NCBI GenBank assembly: GCA_036385775.1
Contig: DASVJT010000144.1
Coordinates: 1-25,523, forward strand
Source of the DNA: an archaeon
GTDB taxonomy: Archaea; Halobacteriota; Bog-38; Methanoflorentales; Methanoflorentaceae
Reading direction: 5' to 3'
Length of the DNA: 25,523 bases
Each line of letters begins with the position of its first letter. Position 1 is the first letter of the stretch. Positions 4,161-22,131 of the stretch are shown here, piece by piece. Both the position numbers and the translations under genes were made by a program. Below the pieces are notes generated by a model, which was not told where the DNA came from, ran no database searches, and worked only from the letters and a program-made list of their open reading frames with translations.

Positions 4161-4627
4161 ACGCAATTGAAACCAACAGTCGTGATAGCAGTCCTTTCGC
4201 TTGTTGTTGCCTCTTTTTAGTAGCAGGTTGCACGGATACCCAAGAAACAACGCCATCGAATGCAGGCGGCGTTGCCTTCGCCGTCAATTCAGTAACGACA
4301 AGCAGTAGGATAGGAAACGACCCGATACTTGCAAGCAAGCCACATCCCGGGAACCATTTCATTACGTTCAACGTGACCGTTACTAATGTGAATAAAGACG
4401 ATCTCACGATCGGTAGTTACACCAATTTTACGCTGACGACGAAAGACGAGACGGTTAATTCTCCTTTTTGGAGAAGTCTAAGCGATGACACACTCAGTTC
4501 AAAAGCCCACACGTATCCCTGAGAGAAGGTGACGGGAACGATTACGTTTGAGATCCCACAGAACGGGGAGGCTACTGCGTTGGGTTATGCCGACGGCGTT
4601 AATGGTGTGATAACAATCAATTTATAA
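4161..4627 (+). pseudogene. DUF4352-like lipoprotein pseudogene, paralog of 11964-12470
   Basis: ACG replaces ATG (QLKPTVVIAVLSLVVAS...). A 1-nt loss in the T run 4214-4218 precedes LVAGC, and TGA at 4520-4522 interrupts YP(G)EKVTGTITFEIPQ. Ends ...GVITINL*. Confidence 0.8.
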
Positions 4628-4670
4628 TCGAACATACTGATTCGTTTGACGTCTCCTTATCCCCTCTCCA

Positions 4671-4683
4671 TTTTTTTCGATTT
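4671..4683 (+). terminator. Pyrimidine tract + TTTTTTTCGATTT 3' motif
   Basis: About 45 bp after the stop at 4627; the same motif follows stops at 5072 and 12470 and recurs at 21278. Confidence 0.5.
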
Positions 4684-8434: not shown

Positions 8435-8920
8435 TTGACTCCGAAAGACATAGACGAACGCGAAGGGCGGTTCGAAGATTTAGACGTGCATGAGGATTTT
8501 AAAGCTAAAGGCATACGCACCGAAAGACTCCATACGCCTCCGACTGAAGCAGACTATAACGAACTTTATCAAGCGTATTGTGACAGCGACGGCGAGTATG
8601 AAGAAGGGAGCGGCAAGCGTTCTTTGTTTTATTACTCAGACGCGCTTTTTACCGGCGAAGAATTGCTTAAGGGGTTTGCGAAGGCGTTAGCTTACGGCAA
8701 TAAAGGCGAGTGGAATTACAACGCGTTCGATGAAGACACCCTTAACGAAGTTATTAAAGCGTTTGGAGACGGGGCGATTTACCAACCCGCGCGAGCGTAT
8801 AGCGTAGAAATTTTAGTACATCGGGATTTGACCGGGATTGACTTAACGGCATTAGATGCAATGATGGCCGTCGAGATCGATATTGTAGCGCCTAACGTGC
8901 TGCGTTTGTTGTTTGATTGA
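8435..8920 (+). CDS. Acidic hypothetical protein (161 aa)
   Basis: GAGGTA RBS before the TTG; long ORF with protein-like composition; no family recognised. Confidence 0.65.
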   Translation: MTPKDIDEREGRFEDLDVHEDFKAKGIRTERLHTPPTEADYNELYQAYCDSDGEYEEGSGKRSLFYYSDALFTGEELLKGFAKALAYGNKGEWNYNAFDEDTLNEVIKAFGDGAIYQPARAYSVEILVHRDLTGIDLTALDAMMAVEIDIVAPNVLRLLFD

Positions 8921-9042
8921 TTGACTAGAGGTAAAAAATGAAGCTTAATCCTGTCGATTTTGCTATATAGTCGCGTACGGCGAAAATCTAAGCTTTCTAT
9001 TTGGCAAAAAAAGGGGCTAGAACCATCTGACCTGGGAGTTGT

Positions 9043-9171
9043 CCGCCGCTGTGTTAGCCAGTGGACAGCAAGCAGGCAACTTGTCACCAAATTGTCGTGC
9101 TGTCCTGTCTTCAGCGCGCCTAGTTCTGGAGTCCCAGCACCTCTCATCTTAAGGCTGTATTGAAGCAATTC
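9043..9171 (-). pseudogene. Possible terminase large-subunit C-terminal nuclease remnant
   Basis: ELLQYSLKMRGAGTPELGALKTGQHDNLVTSCLLAVHWL resembles the terminal EL..F.....G...A..G.HDDLV.A..LA.W motif; the upstream part is missing. Confidence 0.45.
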
Positions 9172-9295
9172 AATTATATGTTAAGTGGGAATCGCGAAAA
9201 GAAGCAGAGAAAATCCCGCTAGAGGTCGTTAACATGGCAGAAATCAGTTAGATTATGTGTCCTCTCCCTTGCTTCGTAGTTTCACTTTCTTTCTG

Positions 9296-9457
9296 CTATT
9301 GTAGTAAGGGGATAACTAATCCAATGACTATGCATGTTATGCCAATGATTACAAAAGGCATTCCCCAGCCCCAGTGAATTGATGTTACTGAGTATGATGC
9401 TAACGTTGTAATAATCACACCAGCGATTAGGAAAGCCACTCCGGCTAGCGAAACCAA
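9296..9457 (-). CDS. 53-aa two-helix membrane micro-protein (TTG start)
   Basis: AGGAGGTA RBS; MVSLAGVAFLIAGVIITTLASYSVTSIHWGWGMPFVIIGITCIVIGLVIPLLQ. Confidence 0.65.
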   Translation of the reverse strand: MVSLAGVAFLIAGVIITTLASYSVTSIHWGWGMPFVIIGITCIVIGLVIPLLQ

Positions 9458-9486
9458 CCCTTTTTACCTCCTTTTGCTCGACGCAG

Positions 9487-9528
9487 AAAAAAAGGAAAAA
9501 ATGCAGGTCATCGGGCGTGGGCCTGCAT
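9487..9528 (-). terminator. Hairpin + long U-tract terminator
   Basis: ATGCAGGTC/GGCCTGCAT stem (9501-9509/9520-9528) followed on the minus strand by TTTTTTCCTTTTTTT, directly after the stop at 9528-9530. Confidence 0.65.
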
Positions 9529-9838
9529 TACTTGGGCACGGAATACATAGCTTCTTCGACCTTCATTGCCGGTTTGAATTCAATGGTTTCCAATTCATCA
9601 TGTTCATGTTTTCCGGTTCCATTGAAAGCGCTAGCATCGCTTCTAAATTTGGGGCTTCGGGCACCTAAACGATAAAATGCTCCGAATGTACTACCCAGGC
9701 GCCAACCTCTTTCACTCCGTGTTTCGCTAAGAGTTCCGCTTTCTTGTTTATATATTCAATGTTTACCTCGTTTGCTTCCTCGTTGTGGGCAGGACAATCT
9801 GCAGGGGCGTGTTTTGTAATCACTGAACCTATCACCAT
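9528..9838 (-). pseudogene. Small archaeal-type hypothetical protein (KH.P..CPAHNE...) with nonsense and frameshift lesions
   Basis: AGGAGG RBS; MVIGSVITKHAPADCPAHNEE...GAWVVHSEHFIV*VPEAPN (TAG 9665-9667), then a 1-nt shift to TIEFKPAMKVEEAMYSVPK*. Confidence 0.7.
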
Positions 9839-9949
9839 TTAAGTCCCCTCCTTTTATGGTGGTGGTAGTGACCACCATTTTTCTAAAACACGTAATAAGG
9901 CCCCCTAAGGAAATATATGTTGTTGTTACGTCCGCTTGTTACAGCGTTG

Positions 9950-10013
9950 CCAAAATAAGAGGCTCTCGAAGGGTAAACTCGGCATGAAAAACTTAGGGGG
10001 TAAAACGTTTTTA
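9950..10013. repeat. Dispersed repeat, copy 1
   Basis: CCAAAATAAGAGGCTCTCGAAGGGTAAACTCGGCATGAAAAACTTAGGGGGTAAAACGTTTTTAG. Confidence 0.88.
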
Positions 10014-10056
10014 GTGATTAAGAAAAATAGGAGTATGGACATTTAAAAAACTAGTT

Positions 10057-10269
10057 TTAATCCCTGCTTATAGCTACGAAGCGGGATCCCAGCTTTATCG
10101 GTAGAACCTCGATCCCATCATCGAGCACCCGAATCCCATCACCTTCGCTAGGCTGCCCGTGCTGAGAGTTTTCAACCATCTGTTTTTCAAGGATAAAGTC
10201 CCACTTATAAGATTCGTTCGGCAGGATGAACCATTTGAGGGGTCTCTCTTGTCTCTCTTTCGCTTGCAT
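10057..10269 (-). CDS. Hypothetical protein (70 aa)
   Basis: GGAGGTGA RBS and TATA-like TATATAATTTATAT (~10326-10339) upstream on the minus strand. Confidence 0.55.
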   Translation of the reverse strand: MQAKERQERPLKWFILPNESYKWDFILEKQMVENSQHGQPSEGDGIRVLDDGIEVLPIKLGSRFVAISRD

Positions 10270-10394
10270 CTTTTTCTCTCACCTCCAAGTATCTTAACGG
10301 AAGCAAATCTGCATCAATGCTTGCCATATAAATTATATAGGGACCTGGAGTCTCCTTTCGAAATGATAAAACACTTAGGTTTAGGGGAATTTTA

Positions 10395-10473
10395 CCAAAA
10401 CTAGAGGCTATCGAAGAGTAAACTCGGCATGAAAAAACATAGGGGATAAAGCGTTTTTAACTACCTCAAAAAG
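10395..10473. repeat. Dispersed repeat, copy 2
   Basis: CCAAAACTAGAGGCTATCGAAGAGTAAACTCGGCATGAAAAAACATAGGGGATAAAGCGTTTTTAACTACCTCAAAAAG. Confidence 0.88.
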
Positions 10474-10572
10474 ATGCTTACTTTCACGATACGCATCGGT
10501 TAGGTAATTAGCGCTTCGTTTGCTTTTATTAACTATGACCTATGGCGTAAGCTGTGAACGCTATGCCAATAT

Positions 10573-10618
10573 GTGATACAGAATGTGCGTCACATTGCGC
10601 ACACAAACTCTGTATCAC
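10573..10618. other. Inverted repeat / RNA hairpin
   Basis: Perfect 10-bp GTGATACAGA/TCTGTATCAC outer stem plus a TGTGCG/CGCACA inner stem. Confidence 0.65.
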
Positions 10619-10705
10619 GCCGGGGTACACAGTGACATGTCGTCGGTCCTATTGGGGGTGAGGAAGTCCTTACTGCCAAAACACCAAAAAGGGGAGTCAA
10701 ACAAA

Positions 10706-10852
10706 ATGAACGAACTATTAACTGAAACCGTGCAGGGTACCGTCTGTAAATTCGATCTCCATTCTGAATGCGCCAGTGGAGAGGCTGACGCCGCTGTATG
10801 TGCACGATGCGTCGCGGAATCTGCAGCTGAGATCGTTAGAATACAAGTATAG
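10706..10852 (+). CDS. 48-aa Cys/His micro-protein (C-x4-H-x2-C-x9-C-x2-C)
   Basis: GGGGAG RBS; MNELLTETVQGTVCKFDLHSECASGEADAAVCARCVAESAAEIVRIQV; tandem paralog follows. Confidence 0.8.
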   Translation: MNELLTETVQGTVCKFDLHSECASGEADAAVCARCVAESAAEIVRIQV

Positions 10853-10883
10853 AGGAGCTAGGAAGGAGGGCAAAAAGATCGCC

Positions 10884-11024
10884 ATGCAACTAAACGAAAT
10901 TGTGCTGAACAACTACTGCCGCTACGATCTCCATTCCGGCTGTGTAAGGGGAGAAGAGGACACCCTCACATGCACCAAGTGCGTCGCTGAGTCGGCTGCC
11001 GAGATCGTCAGAACACAGTTATAG
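10884..11024 (+). CDS. 46-aa Cys/His micro-protein, paralog of 10706-10852
   Basis: AGGAGG RBS; MQLNEIVLNNYCRYDLHSGCVRGEEDTLTCTKCVAESAAEIVRTQL; identical ligand spacing. Confidence 0.8.
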   Translation: MQLNEIVLNNYCRYDLHSGCVRGEEDTLTCTKCVAESAAEIVRTQL

Positions 11025-11150
11025 ATTGTGGGTAGGGGCCGCAAGGCTCCTGCTTTGTTCTTTTTTTCTAAGGATGTCATAACTTTAAGACCACTCCGCA
11101 CCGCTATTCGTCAATCATTATTCAGAGGGCACCCTTTATTTCAATCCAAC

Positions 11151-11396
11151 ATGAACGAGGATTGCGTAAAGGTCGATAAGCTCCTAAGACAGCTTGCAGA
11201 TTACAAAAACGAATACGCGGACATGGCCGCCGAAAAACTTTCACGGAAGTGCTCTAGCAGTTGGGGCGCTTACCGCTACCTGCTAGACCGCATTCACGAT
11301 GTATGGCTCCCTGATAGCGCCAGACAGCCGGTGCGACATCATCAAAAAGATACAGGTACAGTTGAACCAACAGCGAGAGTACGGCTGGGAGTATGA
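11151..11396 (+). CDS. Hypothetical protein (81 aa)
   Basis: ATG 11151 within the ORF 11028-11396; co-oriented with the neighbouring small genes. Confidence 0.45.
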   Translation: MNEDCVKVDKLLRQLADYKNEYADMAAEKLSRKCSSSWGAYRYLLDRIHDVWLPDSARQPVRHHQKDTGTVEPTARVRLGV

Positions 11397-11503
11397 GGTA
11401 TCGTGAAATGGGTGCCAGGGCGTGACTGATACCGTCAACAGAAAAAACCGATCATGCTAAAAGTCGACCATGATCATGTAAAAAGTACGACGGGGAGGCA
11501 AAA

Positions 11504-11764
11504 ATGATTGAGAAGGGATTAATCATAACTAGCAGCGATGCGGAGCTATTGAGCAATGCACTTTCAGAAGTGAAAACAAAAGCCTATGAAGAATCCGAGG
11601 CTCAATTAGATGATGCTCAAGCGCTTGATGCACTCGTGTCGTGCTTCAGGAGCGCCGAGAGTGATGGACACGAAAAAGTAAGCCATCATTCGTATTTTAG
11701 CCCCTTACGCAAGCGCCTGATGCTAGGCACGATTGTCGATATGAAAGGCGAGGAGGCCAAATGA
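11504..11764 (+). CDS. Hypothetical protein (86 aa)
   Basis: GGGGAGG RBS; stop overlaps the next ATG (ATGA). Confidence 0.6.
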   Translation: MIEKGLIITSSDAELLSNALSEVKTKAYEESEAQLDDAQALDALVSCFRSAESDGHEKVSHHSYFSPLRKRLMLGTIVDMKGEEAK

Positions 11765-11862
11765 ATTCACTTCAGACAAAGGTCATAGCTGTTATAATAG
11801 TCCTCATGCTAGTATTCGGACTTCTGGCTTTCTACCTTTCAATTCGAGGGGGGCTAATTTGA
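11761..11862 (+). CDS. 33-aa single-pass membrane micro-protein
   Basis: GAGGAGG RBS and ATGA coupling; MNSLQTKVIAVIIVLMLVFGLLAFYLSIRGGLI. Confidence 0.7.
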   Translation: MNSLQTKVIAVIIVLMLVFGLLAFYLSIRGGLI

Positions 11863-11963
11863 TAGAAATGCTGCATCAGGAACGATACTGACTTCGGGCC
11901 CAAACTGTTTGAAGAAAAAAGAATAGGAATAGTTAAGACACCAATCACCACTTGCATAAGCGT

Positions 11964-12470
11964 ATGCAATTGAAACCGATAATTGCGATAATTGTTCTTT
12001 CGCTTGTAGCTGCCTCTTTGCTAGTATCGGGGTGTACTACAACGAATAACACAGCGACAAACCAACCTACAACTAGCGATATGTCAGTCACCGTGAAATC
12101 GGTTGCTTTATCACAGCAAGACCAATTAGGTGTGAATAAACAAGGCTACAAATTTGTTGCCTATAATTGCACCGTGAATAATACTGGCACAAAAAGCAGG
12201 CCGGTCGGTTACAATTCATGGGAGTTGCGAGATATGCAAGGGGGCGTTTATGCGCCTCTGTTGGCCACTAACGTATCTGGGACAGAATGGTCTAGAATAA
12301 CAAACGGGAATTGGTGGATTCCCACTATATCAAAGCCTGGATATGTATTACACGGTGTTGTCGTTTTTGAAGTGCCTCAAAACGCTACGCTTACCTCTTT
12401 AACTTACAACGACGGGGTTACGAAAACAGTCACGACGCTAATATTTCAGCCGTATAGCGTGTTCCTTTAA
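11964..12470 (+). CDS. DUF4352-like lipoprotein
   Basis: Signal peptide with LLVSGC lipobox; YKFVAYNCTVNNTG...WELRD..G..Y and GVVVFEVPQNA..LTYNDG match the DUF4352 Ig-like pattern. Confidence 0.8.
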   Translation: MQLKPIIAIIVLSLVAASLLVSGCTTTNNTATNQPTTSDMSVTVKSVALSQQDQLGVNKQGYKFVAYNCTVNNTGTKSRPVGYNSWELRDMQGGVYAPLLATNVSGTEWSRITNGNWWIPTISKPGYVLHGVVVFEVPQNATLTSLTYNDGVTKTVTTLIFQPYSVFL

Positions 12471-12622
12471 ACCTCTCCACATCTCCTTCCCCTTTATTTC
12501 TTTTTCGATTTAATGCACGTGCGATATTAAACAACTAAATCCTTCTAGTAATGAGAAGAGAGCGATGTAAAAGAGTGGACATGAGGTGATTGTCCGCCCT
12601 TTCATGCGGCAATACCACTTAG

Positions 12623-13306
12623 CTACATCATCCCAGAACCAAAGCCATTGCCCATGTGCTCCTGCATCTCCTGCTGCATATCAGAGCGCATGTCCGCGTT
12701 CATTCCTTGCCCCATGTACGGACCCATGCCATAGCCATTTCCGGCATACCCGTGCATATCATCCCACATGTGCTGCCACATGTTTTGCTGATACGGCGCT
12801 TGTCCTGTGGCACCGCCGGTAATAACCATACAGTAGTAAGGCATAAGCGATGAGGTGCCATGTTCCACGGCCGCCCCTCTCTGGGTATTCGCGTTAAAAC
12901 CTGACCACGCCGTCGCATTCTGCTGCACCGAAGCGTACCCCTGCCCCATGAACATGTTTTGAATGGCGAGGAAGTGTGCCTGCGCCGTTGATGCGTTATT
13001 GCACGCTTGGACGCTCACGACGTAGGTGCCGTTACTATCCCTCACGGTGCCGTTGTAAACCGCAATCCCTACTTGCGGACTTGGTTGCAGTGAAAACGGT
13101 GTCGCCATGGTAAAGTTCAGCTGTTGCATCGTGGTTCCGAGGTACTGGATGACGGATTGGTTGCCGGCAGCCGTTGTTGTGGTTGTTGCTGTGCTGGCGC
13201 TGAGAGTAGGCGTTGGCGAAGACGTTGAAGAACTCGTGCACCCTGCAGCGAGAACGGCTACGAGCATCACTACCGCTAATGTCCCTGCTAAAAACGATTT
13301 TTTCAT
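12623..13306 (-). CDS. Lipoprotein with S/T linker and Met/His/Gly-rich C-terminal tail
   Basis: MKKSFLAG...VLAAGC lipobox, TSSSTSS linker; tail NMWQHMWDDMHGYAGNGYGMGPYMGQGMNADMRSDMQQEMQEHMGNGFGSGMM. Confidence 0.88.
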   Translation of the reverse strand: MKKSFLAGTLAVVMLVAVLAAGCTSSSTSSPTPTLSASTATTTTTAAGNQSVIQYLGTTMQQLNFTMATPFSLQPSPQVGIAVYNGTVRDSNGTYVVSVQACNNASTAQAHFLAIQNMFMGQGYASVQQNATAWSGFNANTQRGAAVEHGTSSLMPYYCMVITGGATGQAPYQQNMWQHMWDDMHGYAGNGYGMGPYMGQGMNADMRSDMQQEMQEHMGNGFGSGMM

Positions 13307-13779
13307 GTTGAAACCTCTAAACTATTCAAACTAAGTCAGTCCCGCACAGCTTGAGCTATAAATCTTTGGCGTGTTATGCGCAGCGCTGACTTGAAGCTTA
13401 GTTTAAACCAAATCCTTAAGCGCATCCAATAGTGCTTTTCGTTCAACTGAGTCAGTCGGATATATATAAAAATCGACGCCTCGGCCCCTACCACGTCGTT
13501 GTCGTTCTACCTCAACATGACCATAAAGCTCCAATTCAGCGATGAGCGCTGAAAAAGTTTTATGCGAAACCTACTCACGACCACTGAGCGCATGATGTTG
13601 TTGAATTCCCGATAAACTTCGGTTGATGATTGCTTTCCTTCCTTACTGTAAACAATTTCCAGCGATATCTTACTTACAAGAATGGCAACTCATAATGTTC
13701 TTTGCGATCTGAGAAAGTCCACCGAACAATACAGCGATATTATTCAGTGGGATCGGTCAAATTGAGCATACATACTTAC

Positions 13780-13890
13780 GCACGGGGTGAGCGGAATCGA
13801 TTGAAAGCACTAAAGCATCCGTTGCCTGAGCACGTATATGATGTTTATATGAAAAACTGGGGAGCGTATCTATTACGGCTTGATCCCTAA
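13780..13890 (+). pseudogene. Gene 3' fragment ARGERNRLKALKHPLPEHVYDVYMKNWGAYLLRLDP, homologous to 6974-7055
   Basis: Nucleotide and amino-acid similarity to the 6974-7055 copy; no convincing start. Confidence 0.55.
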
Positions 13891-13955
13891 TTGTCCGATT
13901 CTGTATCCCAAGGTTCCAGTGCTTGTTCTGCTAACTGGTAACTAGGAATCTTATG

Positions 13956-14432
13956 CTAGTCCAGTTTCAAAAACTCTTTTATCCGCTCTTCTGCTGGAAT
14001 TGCCTCTGACCACGCGTTCTCAAATGATGTGCGGAGATACTCAGCATAGACAGGACTCTCGCTCCAGAAGGCAGTGGTAGGCGTATCAAGCGTGTATTCT
14101 TGGAAGCCGATGTTTATCGAGCTTATGCTCTGCTGCTTATCGCCTATGAGCATGAAGGTGTCGTGGAACTGGTCACTATGGCGCAGGTCTTCGCCGATAT
14201 CCAGTCGCATCCGCGCACCTTCAACGTTGGCGCGCGATATAGAAGTAATACCTCTGACTACCCCGCCGTTTTCAATGAACCGCTTGGCGGTTTGCATGGT
14301 ATCATGCGCGCCGGCGACAGATAAAAATGAAGGAGAAGAGAGATAGACAACCTCGTGCTTGGCTGCTTCAAATATCCCTAAAACAACCGCTATGGTGTCT
14401 TTAACATCGTTGACAATTATGCCGATAGGCAT
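13956..14432 (-). CDS. Stand-alone TrmB-type C-terminal (effector/PLD-like) domain protein
   Basis: AKHEVVYLS...GGVVRGIT...EDLRH...FMLIGDKQQSISSIN...AFWSESPVYAEYL..SFENAWSEAIPAEERI; parallels the C-terminus of the adjacent TrmB; no HTH. Confidence 0.8.
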   Translation of the reverse strand: MPIGIIVNDVKDTIAVVLGIFEAAKHEVVYLSSPSFLSVAGAHDTMQTAKRFIENGGVVRGITSISRANVEGARMRLDIGEDLRHSDQFHDTFMLIGDKQQSISSINIGFQEYTLDTPTTAFWSESPVYAEYLRTSFENAWSEAIPAEERIKEFLKLD

Positions 14433-14539
14433 AACGAGAGAGTCTGAATCAAACGTATAAATATTTACGTAACAACACGGGGTTACTCGGCCTTTTGAAA
14501 AAAGGGGGAAATTATGCAGTCACCGACCTGTAGCAATAA

Positions 14540-15381
14540 TTAGCCGTCAGTCTGCGGTGGACCTTTCTCAAGCAGCTCTAGTATTCGCTCTTCTGCAGAA
14601 ACTGACTGTCCCCACATTATTTCGAAGGTCAACATAAGGTATTGAGCAGAGATGAGCTTATCGGTCCACAACGCTGCCATTTCTTGATCAAGCGAGACGC
14701 GCGTCATGTTCACATTAATCGCGCTCATACAAGCGGTTCGGTCGAATATTGTAAACTTTATCCCACGCTTATCTAAGTAACGCACCTCTTCTCCGTTAGC
14801 TATCATTTCTTGCGCTATCTCGATGATGGGGTAAGAGAGATTATATAGAAGGCGCGAACCCTGCCTCCGCGTGCCATAAAATCATAGGCGGCTTGGTTGA
14901 TGCCAAACTGTGAGGCAATGAGGACCGCGGACTCGGGAACAACCATCACCCACTCTTCCTTCATCGAGGTTACAACAGGTAATAGTGTAGCGACGAGTTC
15001 CTTTACATTCTTGATGATCTTGAACGTCGTCAACTTATCTGTCGGGTGAAATCGCTGTTGCCGTGCCAATTCCGGCAGCTCCTGCTTTCGCACCTCCATC
15101 TCGCGAAGTTCGCTCTCTTGTATTTTAAACGCGGCTTCGAGAGCGACCTCAAGGTCCACAGCGGCGAATGCTGTAAGTGAATTGTGCGATGGACGTACCA
15201 TGCCTTTTTCAATGAGGCTCGTGAGCGTCCGGTGCATGTCGTCAAGATAGGTGTGAATCGATTTGGCGAGCGGTAACGGTGTCTTGGGGCCGTACTTAAG
15301 CAAGTGAAGATATGTCTGTGCCTCCTTTTCACTGAGCCCAAACCCAATTAAACGGTGTGTGAACTCGTCATCCATGGTCAT
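14540..15381 (-). pseudogene. TrmB-family transcriptional regulator split by a 1-nt frameshift near 14855
   Basis: N-terminal wHTH (LIGFGLSEKEAQTYLHLLKYGP...LTSLIEKGMV); the other frame continues NLSYPIIEIAQEMIANGEEVRY...YLMLTFEIMWGQSVSAEERI. GAGGTGA RBS. Confidence 0.88.
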
Positions 15382-15387
15382 TAGTTA

Positions 15388-15575
15388 TCACCTCGTAAGT
15401 GAGCTGAATGATTGATATGCGTTACTTGAAGAGGGGTGAAGCACGCCGTTCACAGCGTTGGCGAGGCGCTCTGCACACGTAGTACAGTCTGGATCGTTTG
15501 TGTACAAGCAGCCGAAGTGGAGGCCATACCAGCAGCCCCTTTTTTGTGGTCGTTACGTTCGTCTATAACGTTCAT
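15388..15575 (-). pseudogene. Third Cys/His micro-protein (C-x4-H-x2-C-x7-C-x2-C), frameshifted in an A6 run
   Basis: ATG 15575 (MNVIDERNDHKK); a -1 shift at the A6 run (T 15540-15545 on +) gives RGCWYGLHFGCLYTNDPDCTTCAERLANAV... with the stop inside the TrmB RBS. Confidence 0.65.
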
Positions 15576-15638
15576 CTCCGATCCACACTACACAGAGTGG
15601 TTTCATAAGGCCGCATGAGTCAGCTTTTACGCTAAAAA

Positions 15639-15713
15639 CCAAAATAAGAGGCTCTCGATGGGTAAAGTCGGCATCAAAAACTGAGGGTAAAGCGTTTGAG
15701 CTACCTAAAAAAA
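15639..15713. repeat. Dispersed repeat, copy 3
   Basis: CCAAAATAAGAGGCTCTCGATGGGTAAAGTCGGCATCAAAAACTGAGGGTAAAGCGTTTGAGCTACCTAAAAAAAG. Confidence 0.88.
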
Positions 15714-16359: not shown

Positions 16360-16429
16360 CGCGGCACGCTTTCAACTATCTTGCTTGCCGTGCTGTTCAA
16401 GCGCTTGGGAACTCAAGGTGAGTACTCTC

Positions 16430-16498
16430 GTAGGTGCGACGGTGCATCCACACACCTTTCGACATTCGTTTGCGATACACAGCGTGCCGTACGGGTGG
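16430..16498 (+). mobile_element. Tyrosine recombinase/integrase remnant (H-x-x-R box)
   Basis: VGATVHPHTFRHSFAIHSV..GW; the downstream LGH and catalytic Tyr region is missing. Confidence 0.8.
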
Positions 16499-21154: not shown

Positions 21155-21365
21155 AGCGTATTTATTGTTCTACGTCACGTTTAAAGCAGTTGCCCATCGC
21201 TTCGCGACAACGAAGGGAAAAAAGGAGCAGATAGCGTTTTCCGTTTAGCCTATCTTCATCTTCCCCCCAATTATTTCTTTTTTCGATTTTAAGGCATTGA
21301 AGGGCTCAGCTTCAGACTTGCACCGAACATACCTTTATCGTGTCTACAACTGACCGTGTGTGTGT

Positions 21366-21944: not shown

Positions 21945-22131
21945 ATTGCTAACAATTGCAGACCAGTCTGAAAGAGTGGAGCGGTCATCAACCGGACACA
22001 AGAGAAAGACTTAGTGCGTTCCTATAAGCTATCCTTTATCTCCTAGCTCGTTTATTCTTTTTTCTATTAAAAGGGCGTGACGTGCTGGGATTTATGACCG
22101 GCGCAAAAGAAAAAAGGAAAAAAAGTAGGTC

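Follow-up and report, generated by a model that had tools for sequence, protein, structure and literature searches.

An approximately 80-base non-coding element, which we call R, has real copies in the genome of the methanogen from which this DNA comes and in a few close relatives. It is strictly intergenic, always on a seam between small-gene modules whose combinations change from one genome to the next, and it contains an asymmetric, almost invariant core of 27 nt (T..AAGGG.AAA..CG.CATGAA.A.C). We tentatively interpret R as a lineage-specific, dispersed archaeal promoter cassette that would fire rightward, with the core as a putative protein-binding site, and we put the probability of this interpretation at about 40%. 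A shared promoter or operator cassette was already proposed in the preliminary description of this DNA. It is still the best-supported reading, but with opposite polarity and different targets, as the promoter-like part of R faces the plus strand in the window.

The window, i.e., the whole stretch of 25,523 nt that was analysed, contains three copies of R in direct orientation. A repeat search placed R-1, R-2 and R-3 at 9947-10012, 10392-10457 and 15636-15701, with spacings of 445 and 5244 nt, and a sequence model extended them to 9947-10024, 10391-10470 and 15635-15710. BLAST identities of the other two copies to R-1 were 87% and 89%. A 28-nt core pattern with 5 free positions matched exactly three sites in the window, those of R-1, R-2 and R-3, where 0.00 were expected from 100 shuffles. 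The three same-orientation copies noticed earlier at these sites are thereby borne out. The copies and their surroundings are as follows.

9858-9946, minus strand: P module, promoter and leader of a 57-aa DUF3303-like gene (9665-9838).
9947-10024, plus strand: R-1, full length; core 9964-9992, AT box GTTTTTAG at 10007-10014, A-run 10023-10027.
10040-10385, minus strand: cassette of a 70-aa gene between R-1 and R-2; gene 10057-10269, own TATA at about 10330-10345.
10391-10470, plus strand: R-2, full length; core 10409-10438, AT box GTTTTTAA at 10453-10460, A-run 10468-10472.
10478-10578, plus strand: L module, conserved 5' leader of 48-aa Cys-rich genes.
10706-11024, plus strand: two tandem small Cys-rich genes, 10706-10852 (48 aa) and 10884-11024 (46 aa).
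11151-11407, plus strand: member of the 'LADYKN' small-gene family, frameshifted.
14540-15381, minus strand: TrmB-like regulator gene, split into frames of 188 and 88 aa.
15635-15710, plus strand: R-3; core 15653-15681, degenerate AT box GTTTGAGC at 15693-15700, A-run 15707-15713.
16424-16498, plus strand: what remains of a gene for a small tyrosine recombinase (about 198 aa), some 715 nt to the right of R-3.

The P module adjoins the left edge of R-1 and is present in multiple copies in many congeners that lack R, and R-1 faces the stop end of the convergent 70-aa gene. In two R-less congeners homology is limited to the stretch of the 70-aa cassette (10040-10385). The left edge of the L module (TTACTTTCAC) is sharp in 10 copies from 4 genomes, and the tandem Cys-rich genes, which share their strand with R, come after R-2 and the L leader. 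LADYKN family members occur within 1.2 kb and on the same strand at 12 of the 42 R copies. The core of R-3 carries two substitutions (GAT for GAA and ATC for ATG), and to its right lie a GC hairpin and then a T-rich stretch. The start of the TrmB-like gene, whose full-length relatives are about 280 aa, is 255 nt to the left of R-3; this family was matched in 16 congeners, 3-14 times in each. A phyletic tie of R to the TrmB-like or small recombinase family was rejected, since both families occur in nearly all congeners, with or without R.

The earlier label of a three-copy repeat holds for the window, but the family is larger. The search of the genome and its relatives proposed in the preliminary description gave 11 copies with nhmmer and 12 with a covariance model, on 6-7 contigs of the source genome, a 65%-complete methanogen MAG. 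The covariance model found 25 more in four congeners (15, 7, 2 and 1), R was not found in the 13 other congeners searched, and copies are present on 14 public metagenome contigs and on further public MAG contigs. In a single-locus DNA comparison the R-bearing species formed no clear clade. A search of IMG/VR gave no exact match to the core, leaving a virus-borne element unsupported, and mcrA was not found in the host MAG or in congener G006.

Conservation is concentrated in the centre of R. The core is a compact block of near-invariant positions in 37-42 copies from five genomes and several metagenomes, whereas the sequence on both sides varies or is replaced; no dyad symmetry was found in the core. 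The left part (CCAAAATAAGAG..) is dispensable: three copies carry an unrelated left part (X-type), in which T3-T4 runs stand about as far away, and left parts of the C115 type have neither a TATA nor a T-run. The B-type left edge is confined to G006 and some metagenome contigs, even at sites whose left flank is that of an A-type copy in another species. Past the core, on its right, come a G-string and TAAAG, an AT box 15-20 nt on, and then ACCT with an A-run. An AT-rich 8-mer is found 15-20 nt past GGCATGAA in most copies, and diverged right-hand subfamilies keep the place of the box while its sequence changes from GTTTTTAG to ATTAAAAC or CTTTAAAAAA; 10-12 nt beyond it comes another A-rich peak. 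Left-hand and right-hand parts occur in at least six combinations around the same core.

Two further features noticed earlier are kept across the family, namely a T-rich box at the right end and the internal direct repeat of GGGTAAA-like sequence. The AGAGnCTCT palindrome is not a family feature, as other copies have AGAGCTCATGC (one relative and several metagenome contigs) or unrelated sequence at the same place. The TATA box of R is nearly symmetric. At the core, R holds a plus-strand ATG AAA AAC followed by a stop. R also bears a loose resemblance to the replication origin ORB, with a TGAAAAAC-type word and then a G-string.

R was compared with a series of known sequence classes. No reading frame is conserved in R, and the micro-ORF on the minus strand differs in length between copies and does not keep its start codon, so that coding was rejected; remnants of a coding gene found no support. 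RNAalifold predicted 0 pairs over 42 copies on either strand, mean fold z-scores were -0.35 and -0.12, and Rfam 15 gave no gathering-score match in the window and none at E up to 5 over 9850-10720. The covariance analysis suggested earlier thus revealed no conserved secondary structure, and the candidate of a structured small RNA was dropped. The copies are not CRISPR, as noted before: their spacing in the window is irregular and a k-mer scan of the whole MAG found no arrays. Likewise, neither the copies nor their surroundings showed inverted arms, which agrees with the earlier remark on terminal inverted repeats. A MITE or transposon-derived repeat was rejected on this ground and because the centre of R is invariant and its ends replaceable; the word TAAAAA stands on both sides of only 4-5 copies, with no consistent target duplication. 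The preliminary description had allowed that the copies might be ends of an IS element or MITE, or remnants of one coding gene; the absence of inverted arms and of a conserved frame speaks against both.

REP/REPIN or IS200/IS605-derived repeats were rejected in the absence of a hairpin and of PF01797 (Y1, RAYT/TnpA) in the 5 genomes searched, where controls were positive. An integron attC or cassette array does not fit, given that R has no palindromic structure and most window junctions lack R; the recombinases near R are only of the small 198-aa type, which is not specific to R-bearing genomes. For a tRNA-derived att site, the best local alignment to the 27 tRNAs found in the MAG scored 20, compared with a shuffled mean of 17 and maximum of 28, and no tRNA was found in the window. 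A replication origin of the ORB or iteron kind was rejected, as the copies are single, scattered over many contigs and mostly in direct orientation; the iteron and element-end candidates found no support. Other genetic codes as a cause of the many small ORFs were also discarded, the standard code fitting the genome.

The flanks of R are mosaic. The flank families on its two sides are not coupled to each other: among 861 pairs of copies, 18 share the left flank, 12 the right and 1 both. Genes beside R have random orientation: by crude gene calls on 42 copies, the left neighbour points away from R in 15 cases and towards it in 11, on the right, 12 neighbours are co-oriented with R and 15 are convergent, and both neighbours point at R in 5 of the 19 fully called copies. 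The earlier statement that each copy sits upstream of a minus-strand small gene is therefore true for the ORFs of the window but not for the family. At four loci compared, no clean pair of filled and empty orthologous sites was found and both flanks differed wherever R was absent; because of this mosaic structure exact insertion boundaries cannot be defined. Breakpoints between the window and a strain contig of 97.5% identity fall inside R. In loci L041, L018 and L019 a 215-nt element lies between two copies of the 25-29-nt core. Relative to the window, L041 is 97.5% identical on the left and only 89% in the right part of this apparent insertion, which indicates an exchange and not a clean insertion.

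The argument for a promoter draws on the compact invariant core between variable sides, on the fixed place of the AT box, on the lack of an ORF, of a conserved RNA fold and of an Rfam match, and on the modules to the right of R. A de novo BRE/TATA weight matrix from upstream regions failed to converge and tRNA promoters were used instead; those of the host genome (Asn, Glu and the C102 tRNA) show TAAAG(C) before an AT box, as R does. The L module starts sharply 18 nt past the AT box in three R-linked copies, including that of R-2, and 6 of 7 L modules without R have another TATA-like box at -17 to -30 from their left edge. Several module families begin 18-30 nt past the AT box of R, and where these modules lack R they have a different TATA-like box equally far away. 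Modules of a 53-aa gene, a LADYKN gene (C174) and an 86-aa gene begin 5-25 nt past the right edge of R. In contig C58 of G003, a 126-aa membrane gene has its Shine-Dalgarno sequence and ATG 27 nt past R with no other AT box, whereas in its paralogue in G000:C17 a separate TATA stands about 30 nt ahead of the ATG. R is upstream of and co-oriented with at least five unrelated modules (L leader with 48-aa genes, LADYKN, 53-aa membrane, 86-aa and 126-aa membrane genes), although other arrangements occur too.

We propose that the 27-nt core is the docking site of a sequence-specific protein, either an activator or a repressor. The BRE/TATA-like AT box would direct rightward transcription with a start about 23 nt on, just past the right edge of R, so that the module to the right would be transcribed under control of the core-binding protein. 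Recombination would have spread and exchanged the copies among the small-gene islands of this genus, so that R would come to lie at module seams whatever its neighbours. Roughly half of the copies look onto a gene or leader start; in the window R-2 does so, with the L leader, the Cys-rich gene pair and the LADYKN operon ahead of it. The others, in the window R-1 and R-3, face a convergent terminator and may produce short or antisense RNAs, or be idle.

Several observations weaken the promoter-cassette interpretation. A selected regulon promoter should avoid random or convergent neighbour orientation, and the AT box is equally well kept in copies facing a convergent gene and in the others. Two alternative geometries would fit too, a leftward start inside the core and a rightward leaderless start at the core ATG driven by the left AAAATAAG box. 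Some downstream modules have AT-rich boxes of their own (the 53-aa gene, DUF4352 lipoprotein genes and the interior of the L module). No candidate regulator for R was found; the TrmB-like family is expanded in all congeners, whether they carry R or not.

R could instead be a selfish or near-neutral, non-autonomous dispersed repeat, with the core as recognition site of a copying or moving enzyme and promoter signals that are incidental or serve the element. This is the strongest of the alternatives, although we consider it unlikely. It would account for the patchy occurrence within the genus (0 in 13 species; 1, 2, 7, 12 and 15 in five), the strictly intergenic position with indifference to neighbour orientation, the lineage-specific B-type left edge and the strain breakpoints inside R. 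On the other hand, the centre and not the ends is kept, the reverse of what transposon-derived repeats show. Terminal inverted repeats, a consistent target duplication, a Y1 (IS200/RAYT) transposase in the five genomes searched and a clean filled-versus-empty site are all missing.

Somewhat less probable is that the core is an att-like site at which island-encoded small tyrosine recombinases insert, excise and swap small-gene modules, similar to an integron but with another type of site. The uncoupled flanks, the part combinations around one core, the 215-nt element bounded by two cores and the co-orientation of adjacent copies on one contig (7 of 8 pairs) are in line with this. A gene for a 198-aa tyrosine recombinase lies 0.07-1.2 kb upstream on the same strand at five loci, and the window has the remnant beyond R-3. 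Module edges, however, also occur at both outer edges of R, and the L, P and LADYKN modules are equally sharp without R, which indicates that shuffling is not tied to R. R-less congeners also have recombinases, of 81-85% identity, and in G006 there is no R within 2.4 kb of a 92%-identical copy. The lack of dyad symmetry in the core, the R-less majority of window junctions and the exchange in L041 also argue against such a site, and a fixed AT box past the core in diverged subfamilies would be unexpected. A recombination role, raised in the preliminary description, stays a live rival. There is a slim chance that the core is the exchange point of a cassette-shuffling system that builds the islands of orphan small genes in this genus. 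Its outcome would be like that of an integron, with modules inserted, excised and swapped among strains and partly expressed from the site's promoter, but the asymmetric 27-nt site and ~198-aa tyrosine recombinases would replace attC and IntI.

It is similarly improbable that R is a self-contained tiny transcription unit. On the minus strand this would give an RNA of ~35 nt from the core CATG, with the AT box as TATA and a U-run from CTCTTATTTTGG as terminator; on the plus strand, a leaderless mini-transcript with ATG AAA AAC and a stop would be driven by the left AAAATAAG box and ended by a T5 run. AT boxes stand 24-29 nt from the central CATG, so that both geometries fit, and T-runs occur at the expected ends, including the T3-T4 runs of the three X-type copies. 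An orientation-neutral place between two terminators would also suit a stand-alone gene. However, the RNAs predicted in this way are very short and have no structure, the invariant block extends to both sides of the predicted starts instead of lying inside the transcript, and neither the frame nor the length of the minus-strand micro-ORF is conserved. The plus-strand T-run is missing from the right-hand subfamilies, and both TATA and T-run from the C115-type left part.

The version in the preliminary description, a shared operator or upstream element of minus-strand small genes 65-125 bp to the left, is very improbable: all three window copies have the start of a minus-strand ORF on their left and, of the 26 left neighbours called, 15 point away, but the 57-aa and 70-aa genes have their own promoter modules (9858-9946 and the TATA at about 10330-10345), conserved in R-less genomes, at four copies a co-oriented gene ends with its stop codon 9-27 nt before R, too close for a leftward target to fit in, and one membrane-gene family is found to the left of R in G000:C17 and to its right in G007 and G003.

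Among known systems, putative mobile promoters (PMPs) are similar non-coding sequences before non-homologous genes, within or between related genomes (Nijveen, Matus-Garcia and van Passel, 2012; PMC3575422). R qualifies, as a homologous non-coding sequence found before non-homologous genes. Like PMPs, it has no known mobile element attached and carries regulatory motifs along. PMPs are defined by their place before genes, whereas R as often faces a convergent gene, and unlike PMPs it has a sharp invariant core and an archaeal BRE/TATA-like box. Like Correia/NEMIS elements of Neisseria, ERIC, REPIN and archaeal MITEs, R is short, intergenic, multi-copy and patchy among close species. Those elements can give neighbours promoters or terminators and serve as recombination substrates, but they have terminal inverted repeats or strong palindromes and many have target duplications or a cognate transposase, none of which R has.

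In archaeal promoters controlled by Ptr2, GvpE or TrmB/TrmBL1, an upstream activating sequence or operator stands directly upstream of BRE/TATA at a fixed distance. R likewise has a conserved putative protein site upstream of a BRE/TATA-like box, and it is found in islands rich in TrmB-like regulator genes. The Ptr2, GvpE and TrmB sites are dyads or short direct repeats that define functionally related regulons, whereas the core of R is an asymmetric block of 27 nt spread among orphan small genes. Integrons have reportedly been described in archaea, in 2022. As in attC arrays, R lies between small orphan genes in variable islands, is mostly co-oriented, and has species-typical sequence variants and re-assorted flanks. 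Unlike integrons, R has neither the imperfect-palindrome architecture of attC nor an IntI-type integrase; it is found at a minority of module junctions, and the edges map to no single crossover point.

If the promoter-cassette interpretation is right, one regulator would control short RNAs and a set of orphan small genes that are otherwise unrelated, all in an uncultured methanogen lineage of peat and fen, and the movement of its control element between genes would be a concrete archaeal case of promoter re-use. The core is a short, sharply defined DNA site that can be used for pull-downs, reporter assays and metatranscriptome mining. These genomes are mosaics in which each promoter, leader or small gene acts as a module that can be exchanged separately, and this bears on the diversification of these methanogens and on the poor assembly of their genomes.

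R, a dispersed repeat of about 80 nt, is genuine. It is non-coding, restricted to one lineage and sharply conserved in its core. The three co-oriented copies noticed in the preliminary description were recovered, with BLAST identities of 87% and 89% to copy 1, and a 28-nt degenerate core pattern matched precisely these three places (chance expectation 0.00). The family is larger than three, however, since nhmmer located 11 in this genome, spread over contigs C144 (the window), C137, C235, C174, C17 and C115. The window features relevant here are:

9858-9946, minus strand: P module, a promoter and leader
9947-10024, plus strand: first copy of R (R-1)
10391-10470, plus strand: second copy of R (R-2)
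10478-10578: L module, a leader
11151-11407: gene of the small LADYKN family, frameshifted in the window
11504-11764: 86-aa orphan gene (MIEKGL...), following the LADYKN gene
14540-15381: TrmB-like regulator gene, split into two frames
15635-15710, plus strand: third copy of R (R-3)
16424-16498: tyrosine recombinase remnant, confirmed by tblastn

A sequence-only covariance model trained on 37 copies counted 12 copies in this genome (G000) and 15, 7, 2 and 1 in the congeners G006, G003, G007 and G004, respectively. It found none in 13 other congeners and only borderline scores in the sister genus, and the BLAST distribution agrees with these counts. A 20-base word from the core was matched exactly in two further public MAGs and on 14 metagenome contigs, and an exact-match search of IMG/VR did not find it. 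Public records bearing R are titled 'uncultured Methanomicrobia archaeon' and 'Methanobacteriota archaeon fen_29'. Adjacent copies on the same contig are co-oriented in seven of eight pairs, the exception being on contig C17 of G003.

The window is the longest contig of an archaeal MAG of 1.43 Mb (273 contigs, 65% complete), to which the standard genetic code fits. The genus is methanogenic, as mcrA was found in 13 of 17 congeners. Besides the split TrmB-like gene, the window contains many small orphan genes, DUF4352 lipoproteins and methyltransferases. Expansion of the TrmB-like family (about 280 aa) is common to all congeners and strong, with 3-14 matches, many in tandem, in each of the 16 congeners with a match; the C-terminal frame of the window gene gave a faint, sub-threshold PLD-like Pfam match. 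A second dispersed repeat, of 52 nt, occurs four times (4632-4683, 12454-12505, 21231-21282 and 22011-22062) and spans the stop region and T-rich terminator of DUF4352-type genes. Other paralogous segment pairs lie at 4163/11966, 6077/11922 and 6972/13778.

The anatomy of R was read from an alignment of 37-42 copies. The left part, CCAAAATAAGAG followed by 5-6 variable bases, is swapped for unrelated sequence in six copies. The 27-nt core, T..AAGGG.AAA..CG.CATGAA.A.C, has near-invariant positions and lacks dyad symmetry. Its left edge is GCTCATGC or GCTCGTGC in G006 and some metagenome contigs and GGCTCTCG elsewhere, and the G006-type edge persists even with a left flank common to a copy of the other type. 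The right part comprises a G-string, TAAAG, an AT box, ACCT and an A-run, with a second A-rich peak 10-12 nt beyond the AT box. This box is GTTTTTAG in most copies; diverged right-hand subfamilies have ATTAAAAC or CTTTAAAAAA, placed as elsewhere 15-20 nt after GGCATGAA.

Several familiar identities were rejected. A coding function is incompatible with the lack of any preserved reading frame, and a structured RNA with the RNAalifold result of 0 pairs on either strand (mean z-scores -0.35 and -0.12); Rfam gave no match for R. There is no likeness to a tRNA, and ARAGORN found none in the window. As originally described, R is not CRISPR and has no terminal inverted repeats; lacking these and hairpins, and being conserved at its centre and not at its ends, it is not a MITE or REP element. 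Y1 transposase was absent from the five genomes searched.

The position of R is invariably at a seam between small-gene modules. Nearly all pieces of window 9300-11100 are themselves multi-copy modules in the genus (P, a 70-aa gene, L, the 48-aa Cys-rich genes and the LADYKN gene), and in two R-less congeners homology is confined to 10040-10385, the stretch between R-1 and R-2. On contig C115 a 53-aa gene module starts about 10 nt after R, and its upstream sequence is unrelated in R-less genomes. In G007 and G003 the RDD-gene module stops at its T-run, about 35 nt before R; elsewhere it runs into other sequence. Among 861 pairs of R copies, 18 share the left flank, 12 the right and 1 both. A metagenome contig 97.5% identical to window 8477-9992 diverges inside R-1 directly after the core, and then carries a 215-nt element (X), a second core and a right part. 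G003 and G007 share this core-X-core layout.

X is conserved over about 215 nt between two R cores in three lineages, at the following R loci:

L041, 1520-1725: copy of X
L018, 1540-1725: copy of X
L019, 1290-1500: copy of X

A long-range stem in X, GAAGGCTAGGGG ... CCCCTAACCTTC, changes on both sides between genomes, and a hairpin lies near the right end. X has no match in Rfam and is a candidate for a new structured small RNA or miniature insertion element. The P module consists of a promoter, AACAACATATATTT, and a leader with a GGTGGT...ACCACC hairpin, before a 57-aa DUF3303-like gene, and is multi-copy in many congeners, including R-less ones. On contig C235 no gene lies behind it and it runs into a hairpin and T-run, so that there it may specify a small RNA about 75 nt long. 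The left edge of the leader of the 48-aa Cys-rich genes (window 10478-10705) is very sharp in 10 copies, and a long palindrome in this region, GTGATACAGA ... TCTGTATCAC (10583-10628), recalls TrmB-type operators.

The best explanation of R appears to be a dispersed promoter/operator cassette placed where shuffled small-gene modules meet. That it is a portable promoter with a built-in putative protein site, of the 'putative mobile promoter' type (PMC3575422), is given a probability of about 0.4. Its right part looks like a rightward-facing archaeal promoter: TAAAG(C) followed by an AT box is the pattern of this genome's tRNA promoters, and the position of the box is retained across the diverged subfamilies. 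The three R-linked copies of the L module have a sharp start 18 nt past the AT box, and in six of seven R-less copies a different TATA-like box precedes that edge by 17-30 nt. Since such boxes precede it with or without R, the left edge of L behaves like a transcription start. The LADYKN, 53-aa and 86-aa modules begin 5-25 nt after R. On contig C58 of G003, a membrane gene has its ribosome-binding site and ATG 27 nt past R, a spacing that agrees with the TATA-to-ATG distance of the paralogue on contig C17 of G000.

With this geometry, the core would lie at about -48 to -75 relative to the start, a region bound by archaeal activators and by some repressors (Ptr2, GvpE, TrmBL1). R-2 would act as promoter for the L leader, two 48-aa genes and the LADYKN operon. 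R-1 faces the stop end of the 70-aa gene, which is convergent with it, and R-3, with its degenerate AT box, faces a hairpin and T-rich stretch.

Against a promoter, neighbour orientation is random and the near-symmetric TATA box permits other start geometries. According to rough gene calls (hexamer model plus Shine-Dalgarno test), right neighbours are co-oriented in 12 cases and convergent in 15, and left neighbours divergent in 15 and incoming in 11. The 19 copies with both neighbours called (10 tandem, 4 divergent, 5 convergent) match the expectation for random placement. Two associations with neighbours are conspicuous, one with LADYKN genes and one with a tyrosine recombinase gene. At 12 of 42 copies a LADYKN gene is found no more than 1.2 kb away on R's own strand, and at 2 copies on the other strand, with only 6 LADYKN loci in the 1.43 Mb. 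All congeners have multiple copies of the LADYKN family (about 85 aa), which has no Pfam or PHROG match and forms a recurrent pair with the 86-aa gene.

Indifference to neighbour orientation, as well as the patchy copy numbers, would fit a selfish repeat with the core as an enzyme recognition site, but R carries none of the usual hallmarks of such elements, making this unlikely. An att-like recombination site would fit the lack of coupling between flanks, the re-assortment of left and right parts, the layout of two cores around X and the presence of recombinase genes nearby: a 198-aa tyrosine recombinase gene is co-oriented with R and 0.07-1.2 kb upstream at five loci. We consider it less probable still, as R-less modules are shuffled just as sharply and module edges do not converge on one point. 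Nor is the recombinase tied to R, given that 81-85% identical homologues exist in R-less genomes and G006 has a 92%-identical copy without R nearby. These minimal recombinases, of about 198 aa and essentially the catalytic domain alone (R locus L020, 3-596), occur genus-wide; the many intact and many broken copies per genome suggest that small elements have repeatedly integrated and decayed.

That R is a very small independent transcription unit, on one strand or the other, agrees with the geometry and not with the conservation pattern, and ranks lower again. The operator for minus-strand genes originally proposed is highly improbable, as those genes possess independent promoters and some R copies begin 9-27 nt after a stop codon.

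At two confirmed loci (L012, 1029-1430, and L008, 1105-1422), convergent genes of the GYD/DUF3303 family stop 50-140 nt short of R's right edge, and convergent neighbours of similar size at L014, L015 and L030 probably belong to the same family. If R fires rightward, it would produce RNA antisense to the 3' ends of these genes.
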